From: an uncultured virus (IMG/VR IMGVR_UViG_3300036719_003654)
Lineage: Duplodnaviria; Heunggongvirae; Uroviricota; Caudoviricetes
IMG/VR virus record: IMGVR_UViG_3300036719_003654
DNA: 64,000 nucleotides
Direction: 5' to 3' (one strand)
In this document: in pieces, positions 7,829-63,455 of the stretch
Layout of the letters: every line of letters starts with the position of its first letter
Numbering within the stretch: the first letter of the stretch is position 1
The notes under the pieces: generated by a model
What the model was told of the DNA's origin: nothing
The model's database searches: none
Seen by the model: the letters and a program-made list of their open reading frames with translations, nothing else
Position numbers and translations under genes: made by a program

Positions 7829-8278
7829 TCAACCCCAAAAGTCGTCAGATTCTTCGACTGGCATGGCCTTCCGACTCTCCTCGTCAATCTCCGCCTGCTC
7901 GGCGGCAGTGTAAGGCCACGCAGACGTTTCCCGTTTTGCCTGCCGCTTCGGAAAATACGCGTACATCGTGTGCCGCGCATTGTTGACCCGGTTGGCGAGG
8001 CACACGTCCACGAAGGCGACCGAGTGTACGGCTGTCACCTCCTCCACGAACTTCATGGTCTGTTCCAACGGGACGATCAGGGTCGGTATGCTGTCCTCCA
8101 GGATGTCCTCGGCGTAGTCGGTCAACGTGCCAAGCTGCGACACTTTGCGGGCGGCGGCAGCCTCGTCGAGGTAGAGAGAAAAACCGTTGCTCTCGTGGAG
8201 CATGCGCAGGGTAGCGCGGGGGGCGGCGGCTCGCATGGCGGCGAGCTTGTCGGTGAATATGGATTTGAAAAAGGTCAT
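7829..8278 (-). CDS. Stand-alone MutS domain-I-like protein, C-terminal DDFWG
   Basis: RMLHESNGFSLYLDEAAAARKV...GTLT resembles the MutS-I GDFYELFxxDAxxAA pattern. Confidence 0.55.
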   Translation of the reverse strand: MTFFKSIFTDKLAAMRAAAPRATLRMLHESNGFSLYLDEAAAARKVSQLGTLTDYAEDILEDSIPTLIVPLEQTMKFVEEVTAVHSVAFVDVCLANRVNNARHTMYAYFPKRQAKRETSAWPYTAAEQAEIDEESRKAMPVEESDDFWG

Positions 8279-8538
8279 GCGAGTATTCGTTTAGGAGTGG
8301 AAAGTTTTTTGCGTAGCGAGCGGAACAAGTGATCCCACCCACATTCAACGGTCTTGCCTTGAGCGATGACCTGGATGCCATTCATGCGCGTCCCCTGCTT
8401 GATTGCCCACCGCCTCATCCTCCCGTCTGCCGCATGCCATTGCAGCACGCCCAGCAGTTCACCGGCTGTATCCGGCAGGTCCACTTGAGCGTTTGATCTT
8501 GGGTCAACCCCAGAACTCTTTATCGTCTGAGGTGGCAT
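8275..8538 (-). CDS. Hypothetical protein (start uncertain)
   Basis: Fills the gap between neighbours; ATGA overlap at 8275-8278. Confidence 0.5.
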   Translation of the reverse strand: MPPQTIKSSGVDPRSNAQVDLPDTAGELLGVLQWHAADGRMRRWAIKQGTRMNGIQVIAQGKTVECGWDHLFRSLRKKLSTPKRILA

Positions 8539-8824
8539 CGGCTTGCTTGAGCTTCTCGCGCAGTAGGCGCATGCGGTGGGCCATCCACTGAGGATGTGCC
8601 TTTTGCTTCTTGGCGTTCCACGCGGCGGTCTTGGTCAGGTCGATCTTGCTGTCAAGGATGTGTGGTTTGCTGCCGCTTCCCGGTTTGCGCGGAGCCTTGG
8701 GCTTGCCTTTCTCGGCGCGATGGCGCAGCACGGTATTGGGGTGGCAACCGACGATATTGGCAATCTCTTCGTTGCGCATGGTTTTCCATGAGATGGTCTT
8801 CGGGTACTTGATGGGGTCAGACAT
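8504..8824 (-). CDS. Basic HTH protein, C-terminal EFWG
   Basis: NEEIANIVGCHPNTVLRHR helix-turn-helix. Confidence 0.7.
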   Translation of the reverse strand: MSDPIKYPKTISWKTMRNEEIANIVGCHPNTVLRHRAEKGKPKAPRKPGSGSKPHILDSKIDLTKTAAWNAKKQKAHPQWMAHRMRLLREKLKQADATSDDKEFWG

Positions 8825-8841
8825 ATGACCGACAGGCTAGG

Positions 8842-9207
8842 TTAAACTTTAGCCGTTTGCAAGAGGGATTCCAGCGGCCATCGGGCGAGGAGTTTCTGGA
8901 TTGGCTCGCATACAAACTCTGGGCAGCCGATCTTCTCCATTCGTTCGTGCAGGCTGAGTAACTCGGCGATCAGAATCCGCGTGCTCTCCCATCCTGCTTC
9001 GGCGTTTCCGGCGCAGGCGGCGATGTAGGCGGCGTTTGCATCGGAGTTGTCCATGCAATCGCAAATGAAATCTGCATCACTCCAGACCTCATTTGTGATT
9101 GTGCCTTCTTGCTGCCACCTCCCCGGCGTCCGTTTCGCGGCAATTTCGAGGAGATGGGCGAGGTGCGCGTCGATCTTGCGCAGGTGGTCGAGTTGGGCGG
9201 TGGTCAT
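8842..9207 (-). CDS. Hypothetical protein (TPGxW / NAxxIAA, Ead-like family)
   Basis: KRTPGRW...DANAAYIAA. Confidence 0.65.
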   Translation of the reverse strand: MTTAQLDHLRKIDAHLAHLLEIAAKRTPGRWQQEGTITNEVWSDADFICDCMDNSDANAAYIAACAGNAEAGWESTRILIAELLSLHERMEKIGCPEFVCEPIQKLLARWPLESLLQTAKV

Positions 9208-11977: not shown

Positions 11978-12460
11978 TTAGCTGCGGACGTAGTAGCTTT
12001 CACCTTGGTACTCGACCGTGGAGTAGTCCTGTTGCAGTTGCTCGGCGGCTTCAGTCCAGTCGATGCAGGTGAAAGGCCATGTGGCCTCGCGAACTGCTTT
12101 CCCGTGGATGACCTCGGCCATCTCGCGGGCGTAATCCTCGAAATCACTTTCGGGGATCATCGTCTCACCGTGCATGAACTCGCTGATCTCGTTTTCGAGG
12201 GTTTCGAGTTCGTCCAGCTCGGCTTTCTCGTCGTCGCTGAAGTCGGACTCGGCGATTTCAAGATTGCTCTCTGCGTCTGTCACTCCTTCGCTGGCAATCT
12301 CCAGCGCGGCCTCGCTCGCCTCATCTTCGGGGGTTTCCTCCAATGCTGCCAGCTCGCCTTTCTTTCCCTCCAGTTCCTCGCGTGCCGTGGTGACGGCATC
12401 GCGGAGTTCTTCGAGTTTGCATTTACGCTTGTACAGGTCGCGGGTGTATAGTGTTTTCAT
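11978..12460 (-). CDS. Highly acidic protein, ArdA-like C-terminus (candidate anti-restriction DNA mimic)
   Basis: Very Glu/Asp-rich; FEDYAREMAE...WPFTCIDWTEAAEQLQQDY. Confidence 0.55.
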   Translation of the reverse strand: MKTLYTRDLYKRKCKLEELRDAVTTAREELEGKKGELAALEETPEDEASEAALEIASEGVTDAESNLEIAESDFSDDEKAELDELETLENEISEFMHGETMIPESDFEDYAREMAEVIHGKAVREATWPFTCIDWTEAAEQLQQDYSTVEYQGESYYVRS

Positions 12461-16015: not shown

Positions 16016-16098
16016 TGTTTTTGGTTCGTTGTTTCGCGGGCTTTGTAGCTCACGCTTGCGCCCTCCCCTTTTGCAGGGAGGACGCGGGCGCGGTCTAG
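16016..16098 (-). repeat. Intergenic hairpin cassette, copy C
   Basis: Near-identical to copy B. Confidence 0.85.
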
Positions 16099-17410: not shown

Positions 17411-17998
17411 ATGATTCCGCTTCAACTGACTCTGAAAATCTACCATTCTAACCGTGTCCGGCTGGATATGGTCAAACTGCCCATTCCGACAAACCTGACC
17501 CGTTGGATAAACGAGGCTGTCACTAGGCGTTTGGACAGTGAACACCCTGAAACCATTGGAGCGGTGGAAGTTTTGCCGCCCGAACCTGAAAAGCCTATCA
17601 ACCCTATGGAGTTGTGGGAGAAAGCGAAGCAGGCTCCAAAGCCGTTGGACTTTCTCGGGCCGTACAGAATCAAATATGGGCAATATCCCGCTTTTCTGGC
17701 GCTCGCTGAAGGCCAGCGGCGTGAGTTGAAGAAAAAGGGCATCATCCTTGGACTGGAAGACCTTTTGGAGATTGTGGCGAAAAAGAACGGCATGGAATTG
17801 AGCGAAGACGAAAAGGTTTCCTTCATGGCCGAGCATCGCCAGAAACAATTGGAGGTTGCGGCGGAATCAAAACTGGAAAGTTTCGACGAAATCCCGGAAG
17901 ACGTGAGAGGACATCCCCGGAAGTACGCGGAATGGGATGCAAAGCGGCAGGCTCATCTTGCAGCGGTGGAAACCGATTTCTGGGGGGCTGCTGTATGA
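17411..17998 (+). CDS. Ribbon-helix-helix-like regulator 1, ends DFWGAAV
   Basis: LTLKIY...NLTRWINEAVTRRL. Confidence 0.65.
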   Translation: MIPLQLTLKIYHSNRVRLDMVKLPIPTNLTRWINEAVTRRLDSEHPETIGAVEVLPPEPEKPINPMELWEKAKQAPKPLDFLGPYRIKYGQYPAFLALAEGQRRELKKKGIILGLEDLLEIVAKKNGMELSEDEKVSFMAEHRQKQLEVAAESKLESFDEIPEDVRGHPRKYAEWDAKRQAHLAAVETDFWGAAV

Positions 17999-18252
17999 TC
18001 CTGAAGAAAATACTTTTGACTTATTATCCGGTGACTCGTGCGCGGCTGGAACTTGCTCGTATCCCGCTTGGGATGTCCATCACGCGCTGGATTAACTCGG
18101 CTATTTGTGAGAAGCTGGACCGTGAACAGCCAGAAACGATTTTGGAGGTTGCGCCGGTTGAAGCTTCGCCCGTTGTCGCTCCTGATACCGATTTTTGGGG
18201 TGAGGATGAAGCCGACAAGGTTCGGGCGCTCGTCAAACGTCACACACGGTAA
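17995..18252 (+). CDS. Ribbon-helix-helix-like regulator 2 (paralog), contains DFWG
   Basis: ILLTYY...SITRWINSAICEKLDREQPET; ATGA overlap. Confidence 0.65.
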   Translation: MILKKILLTYYPVTRARLELARIPLGMSITRWINSAICEKLDREQPETILEVAPVEASPVVAPDTDFWGEDEADKVRALVKRHTR

Positions 18253-18349: not shown

Positions 18350-18886
18350 ATGGCAAATCATCAAGTGACGGAGTATTGGCCGGAGATAAGGCGATTGGCG
18401 GAACTCGGCGTCCCGCTCGCCGACTTGGCGGAAAAATTCAAGGTCAACGCCAAGACCGTATACAACCGATGCGCTTCCGAGGATTGGTTGATCCCGAAAC
18501 GGTTAAAGGCGAAACTAGATCGGGTAAGTAGGGAATCCGGTTTTGACCCGCTTTTGGGGGGAAAATCCCCCTCTGAGTTTTCGCGTTCCCTCTTGGTTGA
18601 GACGTGGCAGGAGAAGGCGGAACACGTTCGTACCGTGGCTTATGAGGCAGCGATTCAAGCGATTGAGTCCAGTTCCGGCAACATCGTAATCGAATCGGCC
18701 AGTGACCTGAAACATGCGGTTCACGTCGCACGCCAAGCAACCGGAGTTCTCGACACGGACGCCCCCCAGATCCAGCTCTCCTTGTTCGCGAATCAGGACA
18801 TTTCTGGCCCTGCAATTATGGAGAGTCAAACGTATGAGGCCGAGACGTTACAGCCAGTGCAAGAGGATGCGGATTTCTGGGGATAA
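18350..18886 (+). CDS. Terminase small subunit-like HTH protein, ends DADFWG
   Basis: WPEIRRLAELGVPLADLAEKFKVNAKTVYNRCASEDW N-terminus, followed by a helical core. Confidence 0.6.
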   Translation: MANHQVTEYWPEIRRLAELGVPLADLAEKFKVNAKTVYNRCASEDWLIPKRLKAKLDRVSRESGFDPLLGGKSPSEFSRSLLVETWQEKAEHVRTVAYEAAIQAIESSSGNIVIESASDLKHAVHVARQATGVLDTDAPQIQLSLFANQDISGPAIMESQTYEAETLQPVQEDADFWG

Positions 18887-19300: not shown

Positions 19301-20095
19301 ATGAAAATCGACTTCACACCGTTCCCCCAGCAGAGGCAGAAGAAGGAAAACCGTCCCAAGGCCAAGGAGCGCAGGCCCAGCAGGACCACGTTCATCGACC
19401 TCACCGGCAAACGCTTTGGCCGGTGGACTGTTCTCCACGAGTCGCCGAAACCCAGGAAAGGCCAGACACGCTGGCATTGCCTCTGTGACTGCGGCAAGGA
19501 GAAGCCCGCTGTCCTCTATGGCGGACTCGTCAGCGGCGCGTCAAAGTCATGCGGCTGTCTCCGCATGGAGGGTCTGGTGAAGCCCACCCACCAAGTCCAC
19601 GGCCAGCGCAACCCCACCTACCGCATTTGGCAGGGCATGCGGACACGCTGCTACAACCCGCTGCACCCGTCCTACCGCAACCACGGTGAGCGGGGGATCA
19701 CCATCTGCCCGCAGTGGCAGGATGATTTCGACCAGTTCCTCAAAGACATGGGACCGCGCCCCGAAGGGTTGTCCATCGAACGCATCGACAATGAGGGGAA
19801 CTACACGCCCGAGAATTGTAAGTGGGGCACCCGCTGTGAGCAGGCAGGCAACACCCGCAGGAACCTCGTGGTCGAGTGGAACATGGTCCAGTGCAACCTG
19901 ATCGACGTGGCACGCATGGAGAACGTGGATTACGCCAGCCTGCGCTACCACGTCTTCCACAAGGGACGCCCCTTGAAGACGGCAGTGGCGATCCTGCGGG
20001 CATCGGGGCAAGCCTTCTACGAGATATCCAGTGAGAAAGGATCAACGCGGAAGAACAAGACCGACGAGAAGCGGAACAGGAGAATCAAGCTATGA
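19301..20095 (+). CDS. HNH-type homing endonuclease
   Basis: IDLTGKRFGRWTV, WHCLCDCG, SCGC, WQGMRTRC, SIERIDNEGNYTPENCKW. Confidence 0.88.
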   Translation: MKIDFTPFPQQRQKKENRPKAKERRPSRTTFIDLTGKRFGRWTVLHESPKPRKGQTRWHCLCDCGKEKPAVLYGGLVSGASKSCGCLRMEGLVKPTHQVHGQRNPTYRIWQGMRTRCYNPLHPSYRNHGERGITICPQWQDDFDQFLKDMGPRPEGLSIERIDNEGNYTPENCKWGTRCEQAGNTRRNLVVEWNMVQCNLIDVARMENVDYASLRYHVFHKGRPLKTAVAILRASGQAFYEISSEKGSTRKNKTDEKRNRRIKL

Positions 20096-20580
20096 AAAAC
20101 CTGCACCCCAGCGAGAACAAATTCCACGTCGGCAACGGGGATGACGGGAAGCACTACTGGCTGACACCACCTGAACTCTACGCAGAGTTGAACGCTGAGT
20201 TTCATTTTGACTTCGACCCGTGCCCCTGCCCAAAGCCTGACGATTTCGACGGGCTGACGTGTGAGTGGGGCAAGAGCAACTGGGTCAACCCGCCATTCGG
20301 CAGCATCATCCATGAGGGAAAAAAGAAAGGCCCGACCGCGTGGATGCGGAAAGCTATTGAAGAGCAGCAGAAGGGCAAACTGTCGGTGGTGGTCTATCCT
20401 GTGGACAAATGGGTGTTGATGATGCTCAAAGCCACGGGGGCGACGAACGTGCGCAACCTTGGAGACGTACGCTGGTGCGCCACGGAAGACGGGTCGCGGG
20501 GCAAAGGAACTGGACGGCACATCGCCATGTTCATCCTGCGCCCCGGAGAACCCTCCCCACCAGACGACTTCTGGGGCTAA
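20092..20580 (+). CDS. Phage DNA N6-adenine methyltransferase-like protein, ends DDFWG
   Basis: WLTPPELY...FDFDPC...DGL...WVNPPF. Confidence 0.8.
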   Translation: MKNLHPSENKFHVGNGDDGKHYWLTPPELYAELNAEFHFDFDPCPCPKPDDFDGLTCEWGKSNWVNPPFGSIIHEGKKKGPTAWMRKAIEEQQKGKLSVVVYPVDKWVLMMLKATGATNVRNLGDVRWCATEDGSRGKGTGRHIAMFILRPGEPSPPDDFWG

Positions 20581-22174: not shown

Positions 22175-23124
22175 AAACCCCCTCCCTGATCGAAGACGGA
22201 CACACCCTCGACCTGACTCCCTGGTGGCATCGGTGCCTGCAAAAGCTCCTCCCGTTCAAGCGTCGGAAGGTGGTGGCACTGGAAGACGTGTTGCCGCTGC
22301 TTGATGCACTGGAAAGCGTCGAAGCCCAAGGCCGTCCGCACAGTCGCGTCTGCGGGTGTGAGTTGTGCGAGACCTGGGATCAAGTTCACTACGCCTACAC
22401 CAAGTTCATCTTCAAACATCCACTGCCATGAGTACCTCTGAATCTTCCGCAATCGAGTGGTTCACCAAAGACCGCGAAGGCGAGACACCTAAACGCCCGG
22501 ACGGTTCCATCGACTTTGAGGATTTGTGCGGGGAGTTCCTGGTTGAAGGAGTGCCCTACAAGACTGTAAAAGAAAAATACGACGCACTTCCACCCTATCT
22601 AAAACTTGACGTATGACCAACTCCCACTGGCTCACCCTCTCCGCCACCCTCCTGATCATCTCCGCCCTGCTGGTCGGGCGCTGGGTCTATGAGGTGTTCC
22701 GCTACACCAAGGAAAAGCGCATCGCGTTGGAGGCCCAACGGCACATGCTGCGTTTCTGCAAACACCCCACACGCCGCAACTGGGAGAACGCCTGGATATT
22801 CATCACTGACAACGAGGTCAAGCTCGGCGAGTTGGACTGGCCGCTGGTCGAGCGGTTCACCAAAACAGCGGTCGCCATCAACTTTCCACCCGAGGAGGTG
22901 AAGGCATGAATTTCAAACATTTCACATACACCTTCATCGGCGTCGTGTTTTTCAGTTTCGCCGCATTTGTCGGGATGTTCTTCCTGACCGTCCAACGCAG
23001 CAGAGAAGCAAATCGTGTTGCGTTGGACGTTTGGAATCGCACCCACCCTGAGATGCGCCTGACTCGTGAGGAGTTCGACGCGCTCAGCAACAGGCGCATG
23101 CTGAATCTTAACAAATCCGACTGA
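22171..23124 (+). CDS. Four small hypothetical genes (22171-22431, 22428-22616, 22613-22909, 22906-23124); the last two have an N-terminal TM
   Basis: ATGA-coupled chain. Confidence 0.6.
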
Positions 23125-23357
23125 TGCCCAACCCTCGCAAAAACCTCAAAGGCAAAACCTACGGCAGCCTCACCGTGCTGCGTCTGGCGAAGCCTGACAA
23201 CAGCGGCAACACGCAATGGCTGTGCCTCTGCGACTGCGGCAAGGAAACCACCGTGCGCTACCAGCACCTTTACACCGGACGCACCAAGTCGTGCGGCTGT
23301 GGCAAGAAGCGCGGGCGCAGCCTGGACCCGCTCAGCGAGGAGGCGTTCTGGGGATGA
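23124..23357 (+). CDS. Stand-alone HNH-associated Cys domain, ends EEAFWG
   Basis: NLKGKTYGSLTV...WLCLCDCG...TKSCGC, paralogous to the N-terminus of 19301. Confidence 0.75.
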   Translation: MPNPRKNLKGKTYGSLTVLRLAKPDNSGNTQWLCLCDCGKETTVRYQHLYTGRTKSCGCGKKRGRSLDPLSEEAFWG

Positions 23358-24100: not shown

Positions 24101-26413
24101 ATGCCCGAATTACCCTCATCTCTCGCCAAGCTGCCAACGGAGACTCCCCCGGTCCCGGACGCCACCGCCGCCACTCGCGTCAAGCGGGCAAGCGACGTGG
24201 TCAGCCAGTTCCAAACACTCTTCAACGAGGACTACATCGCCAGCCGCGACAGAGCGGTCGTGCAGTCCATGGCAGACCGACAGCCGCCCTACAGCGACGG
24301 CGTGCTGCGCAAGCTGGGCATCTCTGGCATCACCAACGTCAACTGGGGCGACTTGGGCGTTGCCCAGGCCGAGGCAGAGAAGCCGTACAATTCGGTGCTC
24401 ATGTCGATGTCGCACTTCGGCATCGTGCCCTTCAAGCGTGAGGCGATCAACCAAGGCGTCGTCTCTGAGTCAGACGCCGAGGGAATGCAGATGGTCGTGG
24501 CGGAGGAGCTTCACCGCATGATCACCGAATGGCGAGACTTCCGGTTCTGGTGGAAGCTGCTGGCCCACTACTTCTCCATGTGGGGCGTCGGGTTCAACTA
24601 CCGCGACGACAATCTCGACTGGCGTTGGAAGGCGGCGTCCCTTCAAGAGGTGAAAATTCCTCGCGGCGTCAAAGCAAGCGTCAACGAGGCCAACCACATT
24701 TTCATGAAGGTGGACATGACCCCGTCCGAACTTTTTGCCAAAGTGAAAGACCCCGAGGCAGGCAGGCTTACCGGGTGGAACGAAGCCGCGATTCGCAAGT
24801 CCTGCATCAACGCACAGCCCAAGCCGCTCGAAACGCAGTCGCCCGAAGCAATGGAGGCAATGTGGAAGGATAACGCTTTTTACGCAGGTAACACCAACGT
24901 CGTCATCCAAGCCGTCCACGGATTTGACAAAGAAGTGGACGGCACGGTCAGTCACTACATCGTGGACTACCTGCTCAACACGGACGACGCTGAGTTCCTC
25001 TACGAGAAGAAGGGCGAGTTCGGCAGCATGTCTGAGTTCATCAACGCTTACCTCTTCGGCGTCGGCACCAATGGCGATTTGCACAGCATCCGAGGCAACG
25101 CTTTCAACCTGTTCCCCGCCGCCAGTGCCCTCAACAAACTGCGGTGCAAGCTGGTGGACAAGGCCAACGACGAGGCCAACACCTTTCTTTCCACCGAGAA
25201 CGAAGATGCGACCATTGACAACATGATCGTGCCTCGTGGTCCGTATTTCCAGCTCTCCACCGGCACCACCTTCGTCGAGCGGACCACACCCCCGGTCGCC
25301 CAGAACCTCGTACCCGCCATCTCCGCGATGAACGAGGTGTTCCGTACGCAGTCCTCGGGCATGGCTCCGCGCTCCACCAGCCAGTCGGAGGAGGGGCAGA
25401 AGACCAAGTACGAGCTTCAACGGCGGGACGAGATCGACTCCTCGCTCACCAGCGATGCCATGGACATGTTCATGGAAGCGTGGAAGTGGGACTACCGCGA
25501 GGTGGTCAAGAGGGTCATCAACCCGGAGCTTCACCCCGACCATCCGGGCGGTGCGCAGGCGTTTGAGTTTCGCAAAAGGTGTATCGAACGTGGGGTGCCC
25601 GAGCAGGCGTTGCTCTTGCTCGACTACGACCGGATCACCCTCAACACGGGCATCGGTCGTGGGTCGAGCGCCGAGCGCCGGTCAGTGCTCTCCAACTTGA
25701 ACGAGACCATCTATGGTCGCCTCGACCCCGAGGGGCAGCAGACCCTCACCCGCGACACCATTGCCGCGCAGACCGACTACCGTTACGCCCTGTCGCTCGT
25801 GCCACGGATGGCCGGGCAGCGTCCGCCAATCGACAAGCAGATCGCCAACAACGAGAACCAACTTCTTCAGGTCGGCGGCAACGCCATCATCGTGCCGAAC
25901 CAGAACCACGAGGTTCACGTCAGCACTCATCTCGAACTGTTGCAGGCGCTCAACGCCGCGCTCTCCAACGTCGAGATGGAGTTGGAAGAAGCCATTCCGG
26001 TCATGCAGAAGGCGTCCGAGCACTGCGGCATGCACATGGAGTACCTCGACCCAGAGAGTGCCCCCTACCGCGAGTTCAAGCAGCAGCTTCAACAGCTTGG
26101 CGAGGTCATCACCAACGGCGCGAAACATCTGGAGGCCGAACGGCGCAAAGCCGAGAAGGAGCAGGCCAAGATGCAGGGGATGCCCGCCACCGAGGACGGC
26201 ACCCCTCCCGGCGTGTTCGGACAGGCGGTGGACGCCGCCGCCAAGATGGAGTTGCTTACCCAGCAGGGTCTCACCAAGATGGAACTCCAGAAACGGGAGG
26301 CCGATCAAAAGCTCCTCATCAACGACGCCTTCGCCGCGCAGAAGCTCAAACACATGGAAGCCCAGCAGCAGGTTAAAGCGCGGGCACCCCAGAAGACACC
26401 TCCCCAAGCATGA
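24101..26413 (+). CDS. Portal protein (putative)
   Basis: About 770 aa, first gene of the head operon, with a Gln-rich helical C-terminus; positional call. Confidence 0.7.
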   Translation: MPELPSSLAKLPTETPPVPDATAATRVKRASDVVSQFQTLFNEDYIASRDRAVVQSMADRQPPYSDGVLRKLGISGITNVNWGDLGVAQAEAEKPYNSVLMSMSHFGIVPFKREAINQGVVSESDAEGMQMVVAEELHRMITEWRDFRFWWKLLAHYFSMWGVGFNYRDDNLDWRWKAASLQEVKIPRGVKASVNEANHIFMKVDMTPSELFAKVKDPEAGRLTGWNEAAIRKSCINAQPKPLETQSPEAMEAMWKDNAFYAGNTNVVIQAVHGFDKEVDGTVSHYIVDYLLNTDDAEFLYEKKGEFGSMSEFINAYLFGVGTNGDLHSIRGNAFNLFPAASALNKLRCKLVDKANDEANTFLSTENEDATIDNMIVPRGPYFQLSTGTTFVERTTPPVAQNLVPAISAMNEVFRTQSSGMAPRSTSQSEEGQKTKYELQRRDEIDSSLTSDAMDMFMEAWKWDYREVVKRVINPELHPDHPGGAQAFEFRKRCIERGVPEQALLLLDYDRITLNTGIGRGSSAERRSVLSNLNETIYGRLDPEGQQTLTRDTIAAQTDYRYALSLVPRMAGQRPPIDKQIANNENQLLQVGGNAIIVPNQNHEVHVSTHLELLQALNAALSNVEMELEEAIPVMQKASEHCGMHMEYLDPESAPYREFKQQLQQLGEVITNGAKHLEAERRKAEKEQAKMQGMPATEDGTPPGVFGQAVDAAAKMELLTQQGLTKMELQKREADQKLLINDAFAAQKLKHMEAQQQVKARAPQKTPPQA

Positions 26414-51328: not shown

Positions 51329-52552
51329 TCAAGCCTCCGTGATCGGGATGGTGTTCTGCACCCAGCCAGCTTTGGCTACGGCATATCCGTTGATCGAGAA
51401 CGTGCCGATGAGGTAGGCCACATCAACTTCCAGCTTCTCCGCCAAGTCGTTGACGCGCATCTTCTTGCCACCGAGGGCGGCTTCGATGTCGGCGCGGGTG
51501 ATTTTCTTGACGGGTTTGACCTCGGGGGTTTTGATCTTCACCTCCTCGGGCAACTCGGTAACAGTGACGACGGGTGCCTTCGTGACGGTGTGAGCCGGAG
51601 GCTCGGGAGCCTTCACTGGGATGACCTCGGTAGGCTTCTCATCGTCGCCCCAGAAGGCGTCATCTTGGGCCGGGTTCGTGGCAGCCTCGACCACGTTTTC
51701 TGCCGCCTGCCGAAAGGACTCGACATCCACCTCAACAGTAGTCGTCTCCACGCTCCAACCGCTTCCCAACGTCCGCGCTTTTTCCCCACGTCCCAACACG
51801 ATGTCAGCCAGCGACCCGTCTTTGCAGCCATGCACCAGCACGGCCTTGGGGCTGACGACACCACCGCGAGGACGCACCACACGGCTGCCGTGATCCACGG
51901 ACTCACAGACGAGGTTGGTTCCTTCCATGTGGTAGTTCTGCGTGGACCACATGTCGCTGATGAGTTCGGTGTGCGACACGCCGATGTTGCGGATAGGCCA
52001 GCGAAGGTACACGTCGAACGGTTCACGCGGGTTCATCGTGTAAGGTTTGGCGAGATCGAGCAGCAGCGGCTTGATCCGTTCGTCCTTCTCCATGTTGGCG
52101 GGGTAGATGCCGGTGCCCATCATCATCTGATCGCCGTCCTTGTAGGCGATCTGTCCGTTCACGTTGAACGGCGTGTTGACGAGGACGCCACGGAACGGGG
52201 TGCCGCCGTAGCGGTAGTCCTCGAACAGGGCGACCGCCCAGCGCGGCTTCACCGGCAGCATGTCTAACTCCATCCACAAGAAGGGATCGGTATTGCCCAT
52301 CTTGGCGAGTGCGAAGACCACGCTGGCGAAGTGTCGGTTGCAGGCGACAGGCGCTCCACCCTCGAAGTCCTGAGTCAGCGGGTAGGTTTCCGCGCCCAGA
52401 CGCTCGGCATGCTCATAGGCGGTGTCCTTGGCGGCAGATGTGGGGAAGAAGATGACGGGATGCTCTTCCAACCCGCCGAGCTTGAGCAGGCATTCGGTGA
52501 GGTCGGGCAGCAGGTGCTTGTCGTGGGCGGATACGGGGATGGCGATTTTCAT
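51329..52552 (-). CDS. GT-A-like domain, acidic linker (DDAFWG) and C-terminal HTH-like domain
   Basis: FLWMELDMLP...MMGTGIYP; KMRVNDLAEKLEV. Confidence 0.5.
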   Translation of the reverse strand: MKIAIPVSAHDKHLLPDLTECLLKLGGLEEHPVIFFPTSAAKDTAYEHAERLGAETYPLTQDFEGGAPVACNRHFASVVFALAKMGNTDPFLWMELDMLPVKPRWAVALFEDYRYGGTPFRGVLVNTPFNVNGQIAYKDGDQMMMGTGIYPANMEKDERIKPLLLDLAKPYTMNPREPFDVYLRWPIRNIGVSHTELISDMWSTQNYHMEGTNLVCESVDHGSRVVRPRGGVVSPKAVLVHGCKDGSLADIVLGRGEKARTLGSGWSVETTTVEVDVESFRQAAENVVEAATNPAQDDAFWGDDEKPTEVIPVKAPEPPAHTVTKAPVVTVTELPEEVKIKTPEVKPVKKITRADIEAALGGKKMRVNDLAEKLEVDVAYLIGTFSINGYAVAKAGWVQNTIPITEA

Positions 52553-56980: not shown

Positions 56981-57756
56981 GCTTTTGGTTGGTGTGAAAT
57001 CCACATGTCTTTGGTGCATCCCGGCATCAACGCCTCGTAGGTGGCGATGTCCTCGGTGTTCTGTTCAGGCTCCATGGCTCGATAGTGGTGCGAGTAGTGG
57101 TCGATGTAGAGCGACCCGTCAGTCACCCGGATAAACTTTGGCTCGGCCCATGTTGGCGTCCATATCAGGCGCTCGTGCATCTTCACCTCCGGGTCGTAGC
57201 ACAGGAAGGGGGTGTTCTTCAATAGCCTGAGTTGCCAGTCGTGCTCCGCGTGCCAGTTCTGGCAGGGGCGGTCCCACTCACCGGGAGCACCGAACCAGTG
57301 ACGGCGGGACACGCAGATGGCGAGAGCTTGCTCTGCCTCGGCATGCCCGATTAAATGCCGCAGCTTCTCACGCTGGTTGACGTTGCCGCCAGCACCCGTT
57401 TGGTTGGAGACGTGCAGATCGGGGGTGAGTGTCTCGGGGAACTTGCCGGTGCCAGTGACGCCGAGGATGGGGGCAAGCGGCCACACCCGTTCATCCGCGT
57501 CCAAGATCATCACCCATTCGCAGGACGAATACCCGATGCAGCGGGTTCGTAATGCTCCGAAGCCCTGGCTCAGGGTATCGTGGATGAGCTTGTGACCGGA
57601 CGCCTCTGCAATGGCAATCGTCTCAGGGTCAGCCGGGGTGCCGTCCATGGGAGAGGATACGAGCACGATCTCGTCGAACATTCGCTCGGCGGTTTCGATA
57701 AAGCCGGGCAGAGCATGGCGCTCGTTGTGGAAATGACAGACTGCGGAGATTCTCAT
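56977..57756 (-). CDS. GT2 glycosyltransferase
   Basis: HNERHAL, FGALR, WVMILDADER, MHE. Confidence 0.85.
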   Translation of the reverse strand: MRISAVCHFHNERHALPGFIETAERMFDEIVLVSSPMDGTPADPETIAIAEASGHKLIHDTLSQGFGALRTRCIGYSSCEWVMILDADERVWPLAPILGVTGTGKFPETLTPDLHVSNQTGAGGNVNQREKLRHLIGHAEAEQALAICVSRRHWFGAPGEWDRPCQNWHAEHDWQLRLLKNTPFLCYDPEVKMHERLIWTPTWAEPKFIRVTDGSLYIDHYSHHYRAMEPEQNTEDIATYEALMPGCTKDMWISHQPKA

Positions 57757-58427
57757 ACTCGCGTAAATTGGATAAACCCGCAGGACTTCGGCACCTCAGA
57801 GGAGGCAGGTTTGAGTCCGGGGTAGTGCCATGAACCAGTGATGCACCCTTCGTCTAAGGAGACACTCTCCCTGAACAAATCCATCCACATGTCCAGCGGC
57901 CATGCGTTGCAGTGTGACGGGTCGGAGTTGTCCTCGTCGCGGAGGTAGGGACCGTCGGGATGGTGAGTCAGCGGGACGATGGCGAGTAGGTGCTTCCGGG
58001 TGGAGGCGAGCAGTTGTTTGAGCAGAGGACGAAGTTGATCGAGCAGGATGTGCTCTGCCACATCCTTCAGGATGATGTGATCAAACCGTTCATCGGGCAT
58101 CACGTTGGACACATAACCCTTCACCCCTTCGTCGCAGTTCTGGATGGCCCACTCGCTGCTGTCGTATCCGAAAGCGTTCACCCCGCGCATGCGTAACGCC
58201 TTGACGAGGTAGCCTCGGGCGCACCCAAAATCGAGAACCGTGTCGCCGTCCTTAATGTGCAGGACGCGCTTGAGCCAGTCCGCCATGGGGAGCGTGAGAT
58301 CGGGCTTCCAACTGTAATCGACGTAGTTTGATTTGCCGGATGTCGGGCCGGTCAGGTAGTACTCGGCGTCGTAAAATTCAGATTCCATGGGTGCGGCGTT
58401 CTTCGTGTTTGATAGGGTGAATGTCAA
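57753..58427 (-). CDS. Class I SAM methyltransferase
   Basis: VLDFGCARGYLV, GYDSSEWA, DVAEH. Confidence 0.9.
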   Translation of the reverse strand: MTFTLSNTKNAAPMESEFYDAEYYLTGPTSGKSNYVDYSWKPDLTLPMADWLKRVLHIKDGDTVLDFGCARGYLVKALRMRGVNAFGYDSSEWAIQNCDEGVKGYVSNVMPDERFDHIILKDVAEHILLDQLRPLLKQLLASTRKHLLAIVPLTHHPDGPYLRDEDNSDPSHCNAWPLDMWMDLFRESVSLDEGCITGSWHYPGLKPASSEVPKSCGFIQFTRV

Positions 58428-60388
58428 TGGAAACTTTGATCAGCCCAGCCCTGATTGGCGCTGAGTGAGGCGGTGATCAGGTCCGAGTATTTGCCCCGTC
58501 CCTTCGTGTCGGTCACGGCTGCCACCAGATGAGCGTGACGGACGGACATGGGGTTCTTGGGCGCGTTCGACGGCAACGCGGTTCGGCGGGCAGCCTTGAC
58601 CAGCGAAGTCAGCCCATGACGGCGACGGGCGATCTCGATGCAGCCGAAGAAGGCGTCGGCGCGGTCGGGGCTTCTGCCGTTGGTCCGCTGCTTCATCACC
58701 TTCTTGGACTCCACCTCAACTTTCTCCCGGTCCACGAGCTTGTACATTCTCGCACACATCTGGATGCACGTCTCTGGGTCGAGGCCACGAATCTGTCCGG
58801 CCTTGATGAAGTCTTTGCCGACGTACCACAGCTCGGACACCCGGTTGGCGAACCTGTCCTTGCCGGTGCGCGAGTTGGTGGTGCCCACGGTCTTGTCTGA
58901 CGGCGCTCCCGCGAAGCTCACCATCTGGAAGCCCCGGCCCATCTTGATCGCCATGAGCGAGGCGAACGGATCACCGGCCCCTGTGGAGTCGGAGCCTCGG
59001 TCTTCCACTTTGACGCCGCGCTTGGCGCACTCGGCATCGTAGAGATTCACCAACTGCTGATTGCGGTCCACCGTCTTGTTACTGGCATCGACCAAGGCCA
59101 TGAGGTTGATCGTCTCAACCAGTTCAATACCTTTGACGGTGCGCTGGTGGATGGCTGAGTAGTAGTCGCCCACCCGACAAAAACAGGCGTCCGCTTCGTC
59201 TCCACCATGGCTGAAGGCCGGGTCGAGGAAAGCAATTGGGGTGGGCGGGGTGAGCCATGTGCTGACTCTGTGCTGGCTGCCGCTGCTGGTGATCTCGACT
59301 TCCGTGTAGATGGCATTGGCGTCTCCATCGGGGGAGAGGAAGCCGCGCACCATGCGGTAGTACTCCGGCGACTTCGGGCCAAGGTCTCGACGCAGATCCG
59401 TGACGGTGCGCAGGCTGAGAATGCCCTTCCACACCTCCCGACCGGCGAGCACGTTGGGAGACTTCTCCCCGTCAAATCGAATGCAGTAGCCACGTTTGGT
59501 CTTCCACCCGTCGAAGGTTTCGTCGATGGAGTTCCACCCTTCCTCCGGCTCCATGAACACGCCGAGCGGGTCAAACGGCGAAGTGGGGTTGCCAATGCCG
59601 ATGAACTGCAAGTACTCATTGGACTGCAAGTTGGTGATGGCGGTGTTGTAAAGACTGTGGGTGAGCAACGGCAGTTCGTCCGCGATGAAGATCACACAAC
59701 GGTTCTTGAAACCGATCTTGGTCGAGGCGTCCTTGTCCTGTCCCTTGCCGCCAGCAACGAGAGTGATGCCTGCGAGCTGGTTCTGCTTGCCATCAGAATT
59801 GACGCGCACGATCTTGCCGAGGGAGGACACCAGCTTGGCCTGCATGTACTGCTCGCCGCCGAAGAACCGGCAAATCTCCGCCCAGTAGCCCTCGACGACG
59901 CCCCAGATACGACCGCGAGACTCGTCCAACGATGTCGAGGTAATGAACACCTTCACATACTCAGGAGATGCCACAGGGCAGTCGGGAAAACGTGCGCCGA
60001 TGAGGAAGCGCCCAATGGCGTAGAGGGCGAAAAATTCAGACTTGGAGCAACTGGCGTGCCCCGCGACGGCGAGGAAGTTGTTGGAGTAGGCTTCTTCCAA
60101 CATCCGCATGGCGTACGGGTTCCACTCGAAGCGGTAGCGGGGGTTGGTCTCGGGACGATCCAGCATCAACGAGATGAACCTGCGGAAGTGCCACGTCCAC
60201 GGGTTGAGCTGGCTGCCCGGCAGATTAACGAAATGCTCGTAGTTGCCCAAGATAAACTTTTCGAGATCCACCTCCTGCAACAGCTCATACCCGGCGCTCG
60301 TCTTGGGCACGCCGGGGAGACGTTTCCACCACCGCCCATAGCGAGCGATGTGGGTGCGTTCCATCTGCTGGGGAGAGGGTTGGGGCAT
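58424..60388 (-). CDS. terL: Terminase large subunit
   Basis: Variant Walker A GHASCSKS, IFIADE, GIGNPT; nuclease motifs FLDPAF.GGD and RSPDRADA. Confidence 0.85.
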   Translation of the reverse strand: MPQPSPQQMERTHIARYGRWWKRLPGVPKTSAGYELLQEVDLEKFILGNYEHFVNLPGSQLNPWTWHFRRFISLMLDRPETNPRYRFEWNPYAMRMLEEAYSNNFLAVAGHASCSKSEFFALYAIGRFLIGARFPDCPVASPEYVKVFITSTSLDESRGRIWGVVEGYWAEICRFFGGEQYMQAKLVSSLGKIVRVNSDGKQNQLAGITLVAGGKGQDKDASTKIGFKNRCVIFIADELPLLTHSLYNTAITNLQSNEYLQFIGIGNPTSPFDPLGVFMEPEEGWNSIDETFDGWKTKRGYCIRFDGEKSPNVLAGREVWKGILSLRTVTDLRRDLGPKSPEYYRMVRGFLSPDGDANAIYTEVEITSSGSQHRVSTWLTPPTPIAFLDPAFSHGGDEADACFCRVGDYYSAIHQRTVKGIELVETINLMALVDASNKTVDRNQQLVNLYDAECAKRGVKVEDRGSDSTGAGDPFASLMAIKMGRGFQMVSFAGAPSDKTVGTTNSRTGKDRFANRVSELWYVGKDFIKAGQIRGLDPETCIQMCARMYKLVDREKVEVESKKVMKQRTNGRSPDRADAFFGCIEIARRRHGLTSLVKAARRTALPSNAPKNPMSVRHAHLVAAVTDTKGRGKYSDLITASLSANQGWADQSFH

Positions 60389-60933
60389 CAGTCTGTTCGT
60401 GGTTTCTTCAGTTGGCCTGCGCATTCGGCATACCCGATGATGTCAACCAGGGTGTCTCGCTTCGTACTCGTCTTGGCTCGGCTGACTTTCAACAGAATCA
60501 TCATCTGCGCCACGTCCCACGGGGAGATGTGCGACCCTGTGTAGGCGCTCCACAGTTTCGCGATGCGAGCGAAAGAGTCGTTCACGTCGCCGTAGTCGGC
60601 TGCACGGTCTCCAGCCACAATGGCTGCGGCCTCTTCGGCGAGGGATTGAGGGGCTTTGGGGTCTGTGTCGGGGGATACTACACGGTAAGGCCCGCGCAGG
60701 TGCAGGGTTTCGTCGTCGGTTTCGACGTTCGGCACGGCGTACCAAGAGTTGAACTGCTCTGCATGTAGGTGTGCCCCAATCAGCAGACTGGGTCGCCACT
60801 CGTGGGGGCACCCTTCGAGATCGTTTTTCGCATCCCAGACCAACGTGTCCTGTGGCACTGGGTCTGGCACGTCTTTCCCGAGCATCACTGTGTAACCTTC
60901 CGGCGCTTTTGGTCTTTGGTCGTCGTCTTTCAT
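60388..60933 (-). CDS. DUF6378-like protein
   Basis: GDRAADYG...FARIAKLWS...MILLKVSR...DTLVDIIGYA. Confidence 0.8.
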   Translation of the reverse strand: MKDDDQRPKAPEGYTVMLGKDVPDPVPQDTLVWDAKNDLEGCPHEWRPSLLIGAHLHAEQFNSWYAVPNVETDDETLHLRGPYRVVSPDTDPKAPQSLAEEAAAIVAGDRAADYGDVNDSFARIAKLWSAYTGSHISPWDVAQMMILLKVSRAKTSTKRDTLVDIIGYAECAGQLKKPRTD

Positions 60934-60954
60934 GGTGTTTGTATGGTTAAATGT

Positions 60955-62397
60955 TCATCCCCAAAAATCTTCTTCGTTGAAATCCGGTTCTTCGGCTGGC
61001 TTGACGCTCAAACCGACATCGCGGGAGCTTTCTAGCATCATGAGCGCGGACAAAAGCCTGTCCTCAGTGTCGCGTTTGTCCTCCAACACGGTAGCGATAG
61101 CGTCGTCCACGGTGCCGGGGCACATCAGGCGGTACACGTCCACGTTACACACCTGACCGGGACGTGCCAGACGAGCGAGCATCTGGGTGTATCGGCGGTG
61201 GGAATAGATGAGAGACATCCAGACCATGGTGCTGCCACCCCACTGCATGTTCAGCCCGTGGCTGGCGGAGAAGGGGGACACAACCAAGATGGGTATCTCT
61301 TTGCGGTTCCACTCAGCCAGCATCTTCGTTTGCGCTGCAAGGGTGGTGGCGTCGGCAAAGAACGTGGCGTTGGGGAACGCTTCTCGCAACCGGGCCTGCT
61401 CGTGCTTGAAGATCGCGGCCACCAGAACCGGCCCTTTGGTCTTCTTGATGATCTTCCTGAGAGCGTCAATCTTGAGATCGTGGATGCAGTGGTAGGTGCC
61501 GTTTTCGTCGTACACTGCGCCGCTGGTGTATTGCAGTAGCTTGGTCACAAGGGCTGCCGCGCTGGGGGCTGTGATCGTTACCGAGCTTTTCAGTTCCAAC
61601 ACCAACTCCCGTTCAAACTCCTGATACTTGGAAAGTTGATCCGGTGTCATGTGGACATCCACATCCTGCACCACCGCGTCCGGCATGTCAGGCATCCACT
61701 CAGAAGCTCGCAACGTGATGGTGATGTCACAGATGCGTTTCTCAATCAGTTCCTTCGCCCCGTCGTTGGCGTCCCACTTGTATCCCATGTAATCGGCTTT
61801 GTGGAAGTAGGTGGACTTGAAGTGCTGGAAGCTGCGGCCCAGTCGTTCTCCACCATCTAGCAGACGGAACTGTGCGAACAAGTCCACCAGCTTGTCCATA
61901 GGAGTACCAGTCATTCCGATGCGTCGTCTCACTTGGGGGGCTTCTCGGCGTAGCAGGGCTATGCGCTTCGAGTCAGGGGATTTCGCGGAATCAACTTCAT
62001 CGTACACCACGGTATCGTAGGGCACGGTGCCTCCTCGCTTCTCGATCAACTTCACCAACAGGGGGATGCTGTCGAAGTTGATTAAATATATGTCTGCCCT
62101 ACCGGCGATGAAGGCTTGACGACCAAGAGGTGTGCGCAGGTTGGCAACTTTGAAATTCTTGAAATCCGACCACTGTGAAATTTCAAGAGGCCAGACCAAA
62201 TTCGCCACACGGAGAGGCGCTATCACCAACATTCCAATGGTGTCGAGCGACGAGTGCCACTCTTTGAAAGCACTAAGCACCGCCGCCGTCTTCCCGAGAC
62301 CCATAGAAATGCTGCCATAAACCACGTCATGCGACAGCATGTGGTCGATGAAAGCCTTCTGCGCTGGGCGTGGGGAGAACTTGCTCACGCCCTCCAC
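60955..62397 (-). CDS. SNF2-like helicase, ends EEDFWG
   Basis: MGLGKT, IAPLRVA, YDE, MTGTP, HGLNMQ, ARLARPGQ. Confidence 0.92.
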   Translation of the reverse strand: MEGVSKFSPRPAQKAFIDHMLSHDVVYGSISMGLGKTAAVLSAFKEWHSSLDTIGMLVIAPLRVANLVWPLEISQWSDFKNFKVANLRTPLGRQAFIAGRADIYLINFDSIPLLVKLIEKRGGTVPYDTVVYDEVDSAKSPDSKRIALLRREAPQVRRRIGMTGTPMDKLVDLFAQFRLLDGGERLGRSFQHFKSTYFHKADYMGYKWDANDGAKELIEKRICDITITLRASEWMPDMPDAVVQDVDVHMTPDQLSKYQEFERELVLELKSSVTITAPSAAALVTKLLQYTSGAVYDENGTYHCIHDLKIDALRKIIKKTKGPVLVAAIFKHEQARLREAFPNATFFADATTLAAQTKMLAEWNRKEIPILVVSPFSASHGLNMQWGGSTMVWMSLIYSHRRYTQMLARLARPGQVCNVDVYRLMCPGTVDDAIATVLEDKRDTEDRLLSALMMLESSRDVGLSVKPAEEPDFNEEDFWG

Positions 62398-62702
62398 CCC
62401 TCCACCGTGCGATACTCAATAGGACGACCGGCAAGCTGCGCTGCACGAACACCAAACTCCATGCCGCGACTGATGCCGCAGTCGGTGTACACGACGGTCT
62501 TGTCCGCTTTCCACGCCAGTCCTGCCGCGATGCCCATGGCACGGTCGGTCGGGTCTTCGTCGTCAAGGACTTGGGTGTAGAGCAGGTGGCTCACCATCGG
62601 CGCTTCGCCGCGCAACAGCGAGTCGCGCATGGCGGCACGGGCGTAGCGGATATTGCGTTGCAGGTTGCCTGCGTAGGGCGATTCGAGGATTACGGTGGTC
62701 AT
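62385..62702 (-). CDS. Conserved phage protein (nucleoside-deoxyribosyltransferase-like fold)
   Basis: VILESPYAG...SHLLYTQVLDD...GISRGM. Confidence 0.75.
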   Translation of the reverse strand: MTTVILESPYAGNLQRNIRYARAAMRDSLLRGEAPMVSHLLYTQVLDDEDPTDRAMGIAAGLAWKADKTVVYTDCGISRGMEFGVRAAQLAGRPIEYRTVEGWRA

Positions 62703-62703
62703 G

Positions 62704-63150
62704 TCAGAAAGGGTCTCCTTCATTATCTGCTGCGTGCTGTCGTGCGCCGATCTTCGCATCAACGAACCGTTGCCGACGTTCCGCGTGCTCTTTCTCCACG
62801 TTCTCCGTGCATGTGAGCACCTGGATGTTGTCCTCCTCGTAGCCACGGGTGCTGTCCTTGCGGTCGATGTGCAGACAGAATCGCTCCTTACCCTTCTCGT
62901 CCATGTAGCAGGTCGGCAGGATGGCGGCTTTGAACTGATCGAAGGTCAAGGTGAAGGCGATCTTGCGCTTGCGAGCGGATGCCCGGAGGTTGTCGAAGGC
63001 ACAGTGAACGGGGTTGTTCAAACGCCATTGCTGCTTGGCGTGGGAACCGCAGAGCTGCGTGGAGGTAGGATGGTCGGACAGGTTGCGCGGCACACCTTTG
63101 CACCGGCTGACGGGGCAGCGACCAGGGATTTTGATTTTGCGCAGTTTCAT
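62704..63150 (-). CDS. HNH-like endonuclease-fold protein
   Basis: HIDRKDSTRGYEEDNIQV; acidic GDPF tail. Confidence 0.7.
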   Translation of the reverse strand: MKLRKIKIPGRCPVSRCKGVPRNLSDHPTSTQLCGSHAKQQWRLNNPVHCAFDNLRASARKRKIAFTLTFDQFKAAILPTCYMDEKGKERFCLHIDRKDSTRGYEEDNIQVLTCTENVEKEHAERRQRFVDAKIGARQHAADNEGDPF

Positions 63151-63455
63151 CCCCAGAACCCCCTAGGGCTTATCAAGCCATCCACGAAGTCTTTGCCGTC
63201 CGACACGTTGTCGCACCAGCCTGTGTTGGCACCCACCTTCGCCAGCAGTTCCATTTCTGCTTCCTGTGCCTTGGTCGGCTTGCACCCACCGCGCTTGATC
63301 TCCAAAAAGCCGACCACCCCGCCCGGCGCAATGATCAGACGGTCAGGCACCGAACGGTTGTTGGGTGAGACGAACTTGCGGACGTAGCAGCCTTTCAACT
63401 TGGCGTAGTCGCAGATTTTTTTCTCGATCTCCTTTTCGAGGGGTGGGGGTTTCAT
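63147..63455 (-). CDS. VRR-NUC nuclease, ends GFWG
   Basis: EKEIE, VPDRL, FLEIKR, PTKAQ. Confidence 0.9.
   Translation of the reverse strand: MKPPPLEKEIEKKICDYAKLKGCYVRKFVSPNNRSVPDRLIIAPGGVVGFLEIKRGGCKPTKAQEAEMELLAKVGANTGWCDNVSDGKDFVDGLISPRGFWG

Follow-up and report, generated by a model that had tools for sequence, protein, structure and literature searches.

In a 64,000-nucleotide stretch of DNA from an uncultured virus of the class Caudoviricetes (IMG/VR record IMGVR_UViG_3300036719_003654), referred to below as the window, about one-tenth of the phage's proteins, all of which handle DNA, share an acidic C-terminal end tipped by Phe-Trp-Gly (FWG). These ends are best read as docking tails, whichever the socket into which they fit, and we put the probability of this reading at about 0.65. 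FWG itself is the form taken in one lineage by a broader and rapidly changing family of acidic tails, the tips of which are hydrophobic or aromatic; to judge by the sequences of relatives, there is one conserved set of tail-bearing proteins (clients), and the tip is rewritten in all of them together between lineages. We infer that the tails bind a common partner and that this partner is encoded by the phage.

The window has a GC content of 57.6% and about 90 genes, as called by a simple, author-made program based on codon usage; the tail counts refer to the 89 complete genes of this set. FWG is the exact C-terminus of seven of them, where composition predicts 0.004 (binomial P of about 2e-21), and in 2000 shuffles a C-terminal tripeptide was never common to more than three proteins. 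Anywhere in the called proteins, FWG is found 10 times against an expectation of 0.86, and three further proteins carry an acidic FWG near the end or in a linker. The original prediction, which was made from the letters of the window, listed these ten sites and proposed the comparison with shuffles; all ten are confirmed, and so is its statement that the motif lies outside the structural operon, since none of the called genes of the structural block (24101-50730) has the tail. It also named a pattern that would indicate a DNA or RNA site, namely TTYTGGGG being as frequent out of frame and in intergenic DNA. The pattern found is different: TTYTGGGGN occurs 14 times on the two strands, 10 times in frame 0 of a called gene, twice in frame +1, twice antisense, and never in intergenic DNA.

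Seven open reading frames (ORFs) end in FWG followed directly by a stop codon; the family labels come from Pfam and PHROG scans of 86 and 85 window proteins, respectively. A 149-aa protein of unassigned family (7829..8278, minus strand) ends in VEESDDFWG, and its orthologues in four relatives (G002, G013, G012, and G011) all end in DFWG; it had been labeled MutS-I-like, which is unsupported because neither Pfam nor PHROG gives a match. The 106-aa basic helix-turn-helix (HTH) protein (8504..8824, minus strand), for which the HTH matches are weak, ends in SDDKEFWG, and its orthologues end in KEFWG or PDFWG, that of G002 reading GFWGSN. On the plus strand, a 178-aa protein resembling a small terminase subunit (TerS; 18350..18886) combines an N-terminal HTH and long helices with a disordered acidic tail ending in QEDADFWG. 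Its AlphaFold2 model has a low overall confidence (predicted local distance difference test, pLDDT, 59.5), with about 85 in the HTH (residues 10-44) and less than 50 in residues 140-178. Library scans (Pfam, PHROG) gave a weak HTH signal and no family match for this protein, so its earlier label of TerS-like is plausible on the basis of architecture and position only; the gene sits at the genome end in two genomes with direct terminal repeats (DTRs; G013 and G016). The 415-bp non-coding stretch that follows it in the window (18887-19300) may hold a packaging site or a terminal repeat, given that the homologous gene is at the right genome end in the DTR genome G013.

Also on the plus strand are a 162-aa Dam-like DNA methyltransferase (20092..20580; phrog_111 at 8e-19, with PF05869 just below the cut-off) ending in PPDDFWG, and a 77-aa Cys-rich protein (23124..23357; phrog_374) ending in SEEAFWG. 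The latter resembles the N-terminal part of the HNH endonuclease at 19301-20095, and its orthologues end in EAFWG (G013), PDFWS (G011), and NQDFC (G016). The last two are on the minus strand: an SNF2-family helicase (60955..62388; PF00176, phrog_62) ending in DFNEEDFWG, and a VRR-NUC-type endonuclease (63147..63455; phrog_93) ending in SPRGFWG, the stop codon of which overlaps the ATG of the next gene and the orthologues of which end in EDFWG, GFWK, GFWR, DFWA, DFWE, TDFC, or TEFC. The SNF2, VRR-NUC, and Dam-like labels of the original prediction are thus supported. As for the three proteins in which the motif is not terminal, a 195-aa regulator-like protein (17411..17998, plus strand) has it three residues before its end (ETDFWGAAV), and the next ORF (17932..18252, plus strand, with a start at 17995 according to our own caller) is its paralogue, as had been said of these two putative ribbon-helix-helix proteins, and contains an internal DTDFWGEDEADK in frame 0, followed by a short basic helix. 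The third, a 407-aa two-domain protein (51329..52552, minus strand), has a conserved DDAFWGDDEKPT in its interdomain linker about 105 residues before the C-terminus (FWG codons at 51647-51655), and this motif is kept in seven of eight aligned orthologues, being absent from that of locus L155 (G011).

The relatives compared here are mostly metagenomic fragments (IMG/VR contigs), and clients were taken as orthologous at a BLAST E-value of at most 1e-4. FWG-ending genes number 7 of 67 in G006 and 4 of 26 in G007; G012 has six FWG ends and one FWR among 94 genes, G013 has five FWG and one FWK among 74, and G002, the SNF2 helicase of which is 59% identical to that of the window, has four FWG ends plus a linker copy. 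Across 44 tails from eight genomes, all of the degenerate codon positions vary (TTT/TTC, the four GGN codons, and the acidic codons). This synonymous variation indicates that selection acts on the peptide, which bears out what had been proposed from the codons of the window. In G011, 6 of 92 genes end in FW[EGDAS] (FWE, FWG, FWD, FWA, FWD, and FWS), from which it follows that the terminal Gly is dispensable and that the core of the motif is acidic-Phe-Trp-x; the replacements of the last residue seen so far are FWD, FWE, FWA, FWS, FWK, and FWR. The linker copies read FWG[DE][DE], which suggests that an acidic side chain can take the place of the terminal carboxylate. At least 99 viral stretches contain [DE][DE]FWG followed by TGA, a lower bound that gives no frequency; many of the single matches are short ORFs or belong to unrelated families.

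The SNF2 helicase illustrates how the tail is attached. In the window, its core extends to about residue 453 and is followed by a variable linker and then the tail; in the alignment, a conserved core up to ALMLLEG is followed by 0-50 unconserved residues and then by [DE]F[ND]EE[DEA]FWG. Matches to SNF2 were found in 1669 cultured-phage records, and the 20 alignments listed stop at residues 449-453; the tail is an add-on. Among themselves, the other FW-tailed SNF2 proteins are 76-99% identical, and that of the window, at only 56-59% identity to them, nevertheless has the same tail. Moreover, four unrelated methyltransferase families end in FWG, one Dam-like (the window), one C5 (G006), one N6_N4 (G007), and one N6-like (G002), as does a PAPS-reductase-like protein in relatives. 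The diverged SNF2 with its unchanged tail and the four methyltransferase families lead to the conclusion that the tail follows the genome and not the gene.

For comparison over a greater distance, 79 loci were collected using the large terminase (TerL) as a marker. The same orthologous clients carry a different common tail in each lineage: FW[DEASKR], EEW[IV], EDFC, D[IF]C, xWD, or LEDCGV. The client set comprises the TerS-like protein, SNF2, VRR-NUC, the exonuclease, DNA methyltransferases, and HNH-like proteins, to which the primase-helicase and the single-stranded DNA-binding protein (SSB) are added in sister lineages. Tails of the [DE]DFC type occur in G016, L190, and L196, and in G016 they are found on 9 of 73 genes, those for the TerS-like protein, two HNH-like proteins, SNF2, VRR-NUC, an N6_N4 methyltransferase, a 232-aa protein taken for a C5 methyltransferase on account of a Pro-Cys motif judged by eye, the exonuclease, and the primase-helicase; these nine tails again vary synonymously (GAT/GAC, TTT/TTC, TGC/TGT, TGA/TAA). 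In G017, 6 of 86 genes have tails of the D[IF]C type (four DIC, one DFC, and one EFC). The [DE]EW[IV] tails are found in G018 (three [DE]WI among 27 genes), L176, L182, L184, and L186/L189, the xWD tails in L185, and FW[DE] and DWD in L168, SSB included. In G021-G023, LE[DG]CGV, LEGEV, or EEV is borne by the TerS-like protein, methyltransferases, a 149-aa and a 246-aa protein, and SSB.

The TerS-like protein carries the lineage tail wherever it was found (the window, G012, G011, G016, G017, and G023), its orthologues in other lineages ending in DGFWG, DGFWE, GLDFC, ASDIC, and LEDCGV. The primase-helicase does so in G016, G017, L184, and L185 and SSB in L168. The class tail is always absent from the polymerase and from TerL across the lineages compared. 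In the outgroups G004 and G005, with SNF2 proteins 33-35% identical to that of the window, no FW tails were found among the 66 and 59 ORFs listed, respectively. The original prediction had proposed checking whether orthologues in distant phages lack the tail: the G011 orthologue of the HTH protein has none, and in more distant relatives the clients end in a different shared tail.

Other types of end are also present in these phages. G004 (loci L127-L129), which has a similar replication module, has three to four proteins, the primase included, that end in DGL or GLGL, and this may be another tail class. A second acidic type occurs on core replication proteins, as EEVDLG on a 231-aa protein of the window (293-988, minus strand), GVDLGEES on the G006 exonuclease, and DLSIDDM on the G006 SSB; the exonuclease of G012 and G011 has both VDL[GS] and an FW tip. 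Finally, an endonuclease-VII-like protein of the window (62704-63150, minus strand) has an end of the [DE]xDPF type, NEGDPF, with EEDPF, ESDPF, EPDPF, EGDPF, EEPF, and NPF in relatives; this end recalls the bacterial SSB tip and is a separate type, constant while the FWG-type tails change.

In the mechanism that we propose, each tail would be a plug connected to a folded, DNA-handling domain through a disordered linker, the length of which varies, and all of the plugs would fit one shared socket on a phage-encoded replication or packaging protein. This would amount to the arrangement of phage T7 enlarged from two clients to between six and nine per genome. In T7, the SSB (gp2.5) and the primase-helicase (gp4) dock through acidic, Phe-tipped tails on basic patches of gp5, the family-A polymerase. 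The clients added here would be SNF2, VRR-NUC, an exonuclease for recombination, enzymes that modify DNA, the TerS-like protein, HNH-like proteins, and DNA-binding regulators of the early type. The earlier inference of a hub, in other words, survives insofar as a selected short motif on unrelated DNA-acting proteins points to one hub (the linkers vary, the tail follows the genome, and the tip switches by lineage); what does not survive is FWG as a system of its own, since it is a lineage variant.

The T7 tails on gp5 are, by analogy, the closest known counterpart. In the T7 record, gp2.5 ends in EADEDGDF and gp4 in WSNDTDF, and passages of a paper on this system (PMC12339929) anchor the gp2.5 tail on the front basic patch of gp5 (K587, K589, R590, R591) and cite genetic work on its C-terminal Phe, in which suppressors of the loss of this residue mapped to gene 5. 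Both systems have disordered acidic tails (disorder was modeled here in one client, the TerS-like protein, with a pLDDT below 50), which end in an aromatic residue in T7 (EDGDF, NDTDF) and in EEDFWG here, with EEDFC and EEWI in the sister lineages. Both have a gp2.5-like SSB and a family-A polymerase. The primase-helicase and SSB, the two clients in T7, carry the lineage tail in sister lineages here but do not carry FWG in the lineage of the window. The differences are that there are six to nine clients per genome here versus two in T7; that methyltransferases, nucleases, an SNF2 helicase, a TerS-like protein, and regulators are among them; that one or two residues follow the aromatic one here and that the tip switches in concert between lineages; and that the tail class here does not follow the polymerase in G012, the socket being a candidate here.

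A cultured phage has the same habit. In Salmonella phage Chi (NC_025442), acidic-[DEN]V ends occur on 8 of the 53 coding sequences examined, namely those for an HTH protein, the primase, gp4, the exonuclease, a gp2.5-like SSB, the annotated small terminase, gp18, and PAPS reductase, and the polymerase and TerL of Chi do not have such a tail. Chi shares both the module (primase, exonuclease, gp2.5-like SSB, PolA, VRR-NUC, SNF2, and terminase) and the client set with the phages studied here; unlike theirs, its tails have an aliphatic Val tip after a long acidic run rather than Phe-Trp-Gly.

Flexible C-terminal peptides are described as docking elements in packaging in passages of three papers (PMC13595956, PMC5389665, and PMC5290284). 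The tails that run from TerS to TerL and from TerL to portal resemble the present ones in being flexible C-terminal docking elements, the TerS-like protein here bearing the shared tail and TerL here having a disordered Trp tail; in those systems, however, each tail serves one partner, whereas the tail here is common to a tenth of the proteome. The original prediction had taken the DDDIPF tail of SSB and the clamp-binding tails of T4 as analogies, and the T7 tails are closer. The bacterial SSB tip is DDDIPF, and clamp-binding motifs are of the QL[SD]LF or QxxLxxFF-like form. The SSB tip, the clamp motifs, and the gp45-binding tails of T4 are all short, C-terminal, acidic or hydrophobic peptides that organize genome-maintenance proteins around a hub, as the present tails would. 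In bacterial SSB, though, one tail serves many sockets, so that the topology is reversed, and the clamp motifs need a clamp, none of which was found in the window scans, and differ from the present motif. A limited literature search found no description of phage FWG or DFWG ends or of shared acidic tails on the small terminase, SSB, and polymerase, and no paper on the acidic-Val tails of Chi-like phages was found.

Where might the socket be? The replication module of the window consists of a primase-helicase, a PD-(D/E)XK exonuclease (DUF2800), a gp2.5/Enc34-like SSB, a family-A polymerase, VRR-NUC, the endonuclease-VII-like protein, and SNF2. Of these, the exonuclease, SSB, and the greater part of the polymerase are encoded just beyond the right end of the window and were read from the relative G006. 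The first candidate, a tentative one, is the polymerase or replisome; the T7 precedent and the constant lack of a tail on the polymerase speak for the latter protein. Only the C-terminal end of this polymerase is in the window (63690..64000, minus strand), where the gene runs off the edge; the full gene of G006 matches this part at 100% identity, its last 77 codons being the same as those of the window. The G006 polymerase belongs to phrog_17 and PF00476 and the G006 SSB (gp2.5-like) to phrog_112 and PF10991. In about 20 loci covering all of the lineages examined, the polymerase ends are constant and always without a tail. Co-folding of the G006 polymerase (with an alignment of 66 rows) and SNF2 residues 444-477 scored 0.00 in both runs, which counts neither way. 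A phylogenetic profile for the socket gene gave no candidate, as the window or G006 proteins present in all five tail-rich genomes are all also present in G021-G023, a lineage that has its own tail class. Intein-sized insertions are found at polymerase motif B in G012, L169, and L173.

Several observations weigh against the docking reading or against the polymerase as its socket. Although the tails of G012 are of the FWG type, the polymerase of this genome shares only 44-48% identity with those of other FW-tailed (FWG and FWx) phages and is closest (58%) to the LEDCGV lineage, whereas its TerL is 80-86% identical to those of other FWG phages; it is thus the genome backbone, rather than the polymerase, that the tail class follows. 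In an uninformative alignment with the front basic patch of T7, the corresponding region is not notably basic here. The TerS-like protein and the transcription-type regulators are odd clients for a polymerase. In the FWG lineage, the primase-helicase ends in ENSSNSENL and SSB (G006 and G013) in DLSIDDM, so neither of the two T7-type clients carries FWG; the primase-helicase gene of the window (1596..4196, minus strand) is itself without the tail that its orthologues have as clients in the DFC, DIC, EWI, and xWD lineages. The G011 orthologue of the 106-aa HTH protein has lost its tail, and some tails are not acidic (SPRGFWG, REGGFWK). Concerted change within a genome could stem from recombination between tail-coding repeats rather than from co-evolution with a socket. 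Finally, the gene calls rest on our own simple caller.

The same plug mechanism with TerL or the packaging vertex as the socket, reached by plugs of the TerS type, is a version of the docking reading that we regard as possible but doubtful. Replication, recombination, and DNA-modifying enzymes would then ride on the packaging motor or compete at it. TerL (58424..60424, minus strand; 666 aa), our second candidate after the polymerase, is in the same operon as clients, has a net charge of +11, and never has the class tail. Its fold is confirmed: the AlphaFold2 model has a pLDDT of 86 (below 50 in residues 648-666), the top Foldseek matches are the TerL proteins of Sf6, HK97, and T4, and the ESM Atlas gave a matching lead. 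The lineage tail is on the TerS-like protein in all of the lineages where this protein is found and on the annotated small terminase of Chi; according to passages of a 2026 review (PMC13595956), the TerS C-terminus binds the TerL N-terminus. TerL identity also tracks the tail class better than that of the polymerase, as in G012, and in an unrelated phage, G009, TerL itself ends in DEYDDFWG. Against this, the TerLs of L182 (EWI) and G017 (DIC) are 76% identical and the tails differ, the whole genome backbone and not TerL alone tracks the tail class, and the identity of the 178-aa protein as TerS comes from its architecture and position. Docking of a primase-helicase, SSB, or exonuclease on TerL via a TerS-like tail has no known precedent, and neither has the use of the TerS site by replisome proteins.

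TerL has a C-terminal tail of its own, NQGWADQSFH. Among TerL homologues, a Trp occurs in the last 12 residues in 87 of 120 versus 29 expected, 31 end in W-x-x, and the terminal motif of the family, [GAS]-W-[GA]-[DE], is unchanged while the client tails change class. This constancy makes the TerL tail a separate plug, probably for a different socket; the portal may be its partner, as the analogy with T3, lambda, and P22 would suggest (PMC5389665 and PMC5290284). The 770-aa first gene product of the structural block (24101..26413, plus strand) is probably the portal, on an ESM Atlas lead, a cluster with a score of 0.96 of whose members 11% have SU10_portal. It is the third candidate socket, demoted because the TerL tail is constant while the client tails change. 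Intein Pfam domains are present in some TerL homologues (P0074-P0076 and P0109). For the 666-aa TerL and for the 407- and 332-aa proteins, phmmer against PDB sequences gave nothing useful; in cultured phage records, neither blastn with 58424-62397 nor tblastn with TerL gave a match.

A broader form of the docking reading, which we likewise regard as possible but doubtful, is that of a proteome-wide address tag in which one fast-evolving plug (FWG, DFC, EWI, DEV, and others) would join six to nine proteins per genome to a single phage socket, possibly TerL or the packaging vertex. The proteins so joined would be those of the replisome, nucleases of recombination, DNA-modifying enzymes, the small terminase, and early regulators. 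This would apply to a large group of phages, those with the PolA, VRR-NUC, SNF2, and terminase module; replication, modification, debranching, and packaging would be physically coupled; and new genes would join the network by landing beside a tail-coding junction.

A socket on the host side (the sliding clamp, RNA polymerase, or a protein that interacts with SSB, for example), with the tail classes differing with the hosts, seems unlikely to us. In its favor, the Pfam and PHROG scans of the window proteins revealed neither a sliding clamp nor any other gene for an obvious hub, the lineages with different tail classes may infect different hosts, and the [DE]xDPF end of the endonuclease-VII-like neighbor implies that host-type tails do occur in these phages. 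However, the tails change fast among close phages (FWG to FW[DE] at 72-79% TerL identity and EWI to DIC at 76%), which would be unusual for a conserved hub, the socket in the T7 precedent is encoded by the phage, and the tails are unlike QL[SD]LF or DDDIPF. The part of the probability that goes to none of the polymerase, TerL, or the host is left for another socket or for several.

It is improbable, in our view, that there is no common partner at all and that the acidic-aromatic tails are DNA mimics that fold back on the DNA-binding surface of their own protein so as to inhibit it. All of the clients bind DNA, and acidic and aromatic residues resemble the phosphate backbone and a base; Marintcheva reportedly found in 2008 that the tail of T7 gp2.5 competes with single-stranded DNA for its own cleft in the OB fold. 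Yet such unrelated folds as HTH, SNF2, VRR-NUC, methyltransferases, and PD-(D/E)XK would not all need an identical tip, and the joint switching of the tip (FWG, DFC, EWI) by lineage would not be expected.

Another explanation would make the peptide a by-product of a DNA or RNA signal at the gene ends, either a junction for cassette recombination or a device for translational coupling. Methyltransferase cassettes of different families are present in G002, G006, and G007 (loci L015, L119, and L121), between VRR-NUC and the endonuclease-VII-like gene and after SNF2, and are flanked by direct repeats of 18-27 nt consisting of the tail codons plus TGA-A; at some junctions, the stop overlaps the next ATG (GGGGATGA), as in two of the seven window tails. 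G002 has an orphan in-frame FWG between two stop codons at the site where relatives have the PAPS-reductase-like gene, as if the cassette had been lost. Tail-coding junctions therefore seem to serve as cassette boundaries, and they could help new genes acquire the tail and keep the tails within a genome alike. They do not explain the linker copies, which are far from gene ends, the synonymous variation at every degenerate position, or the different codons of other lineages (GAYTTYTGY) at the same place in the same proteins; moreover, 10 of the 14 TTYTGGGGN sites are in frame with none intergenic, and there are gaps of 27 to 415 nt behind several of the tails. We consider a nucleic acid signal very unlikely as the whole explanation.

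A C-terminal degron or a covalent conjugation tag, which the original prediction allowed for and which a hydrophobic-tipped peptide on many early proteins with a terminal Gly reminiscent of ubiquitin-like ends might suggest, is disfavored to a similar extent, given that the last residue varies freely (G, D, E, A, S, K, R), that the copies inside linkers are conserved, that SSB, the primase-helicase, and TerS are needed in quantity, that the Pfam and PHROG scans of the window gave no E1-like or protease gene, and that the T7 tails, which are built alike, serve for docking.

Some further features of the window may be mentioned. A 3422-aa ORF (39878-50146, plus strand), 50-57% identical in relatives, has ART-PolyVal (the ADP-ribosyltransferase of polyvalent proteins) as its sole match and is probably an injected polyvalent protein. 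Just downstream of TerL, a cluster (53399-58388, minus strand) encodes a radical-SAM enzyme (97% identical in G002 and G007), three S-adenosylmethionine (SAM) methyltransferases, a GT2 glycosyltransferase, and the 332-aa protein, which has no assigned family; the cluster may be a modification pathway for DNA or another target. The adjoining genes for nicotinamide phosphoribosyltransferase and ribose-phosphate pyrophosphokinase (5215-7802, minus strand) look like an auxiliary module for NAD salvage. Three very acidic small early proteins (11978-12460, 15378-16001, and 16095-16514, minus strand; net charges of -30, -15, and -20) may be DNA mimics or anti-restriction proteins.

In T7, the textbook example, two acidic tails hold the replisome together, and here the same device appears to organize about one-tenth of a proteome, which would include regulators, the packaging initiator, and enzymes for the methylation or other modification of DNA. 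The tail-coding junctions suggest how acquired genes, such as the methyltransferase cassettes, get wired into this network at the moment of insertion. The existence of cultured Chi-like phages with the same habit makes the question testable at the bench. If the socket is found, it would reveal how replication, recombination, packaging, and the modification of DNA are linked in these phages; the tail would be a simple sequence rule for predicting which orphan proteins take part in phage DNA replication, modification, or packaging; and the system would be a natural model for the co-evolution of a short linear motif with its reader.

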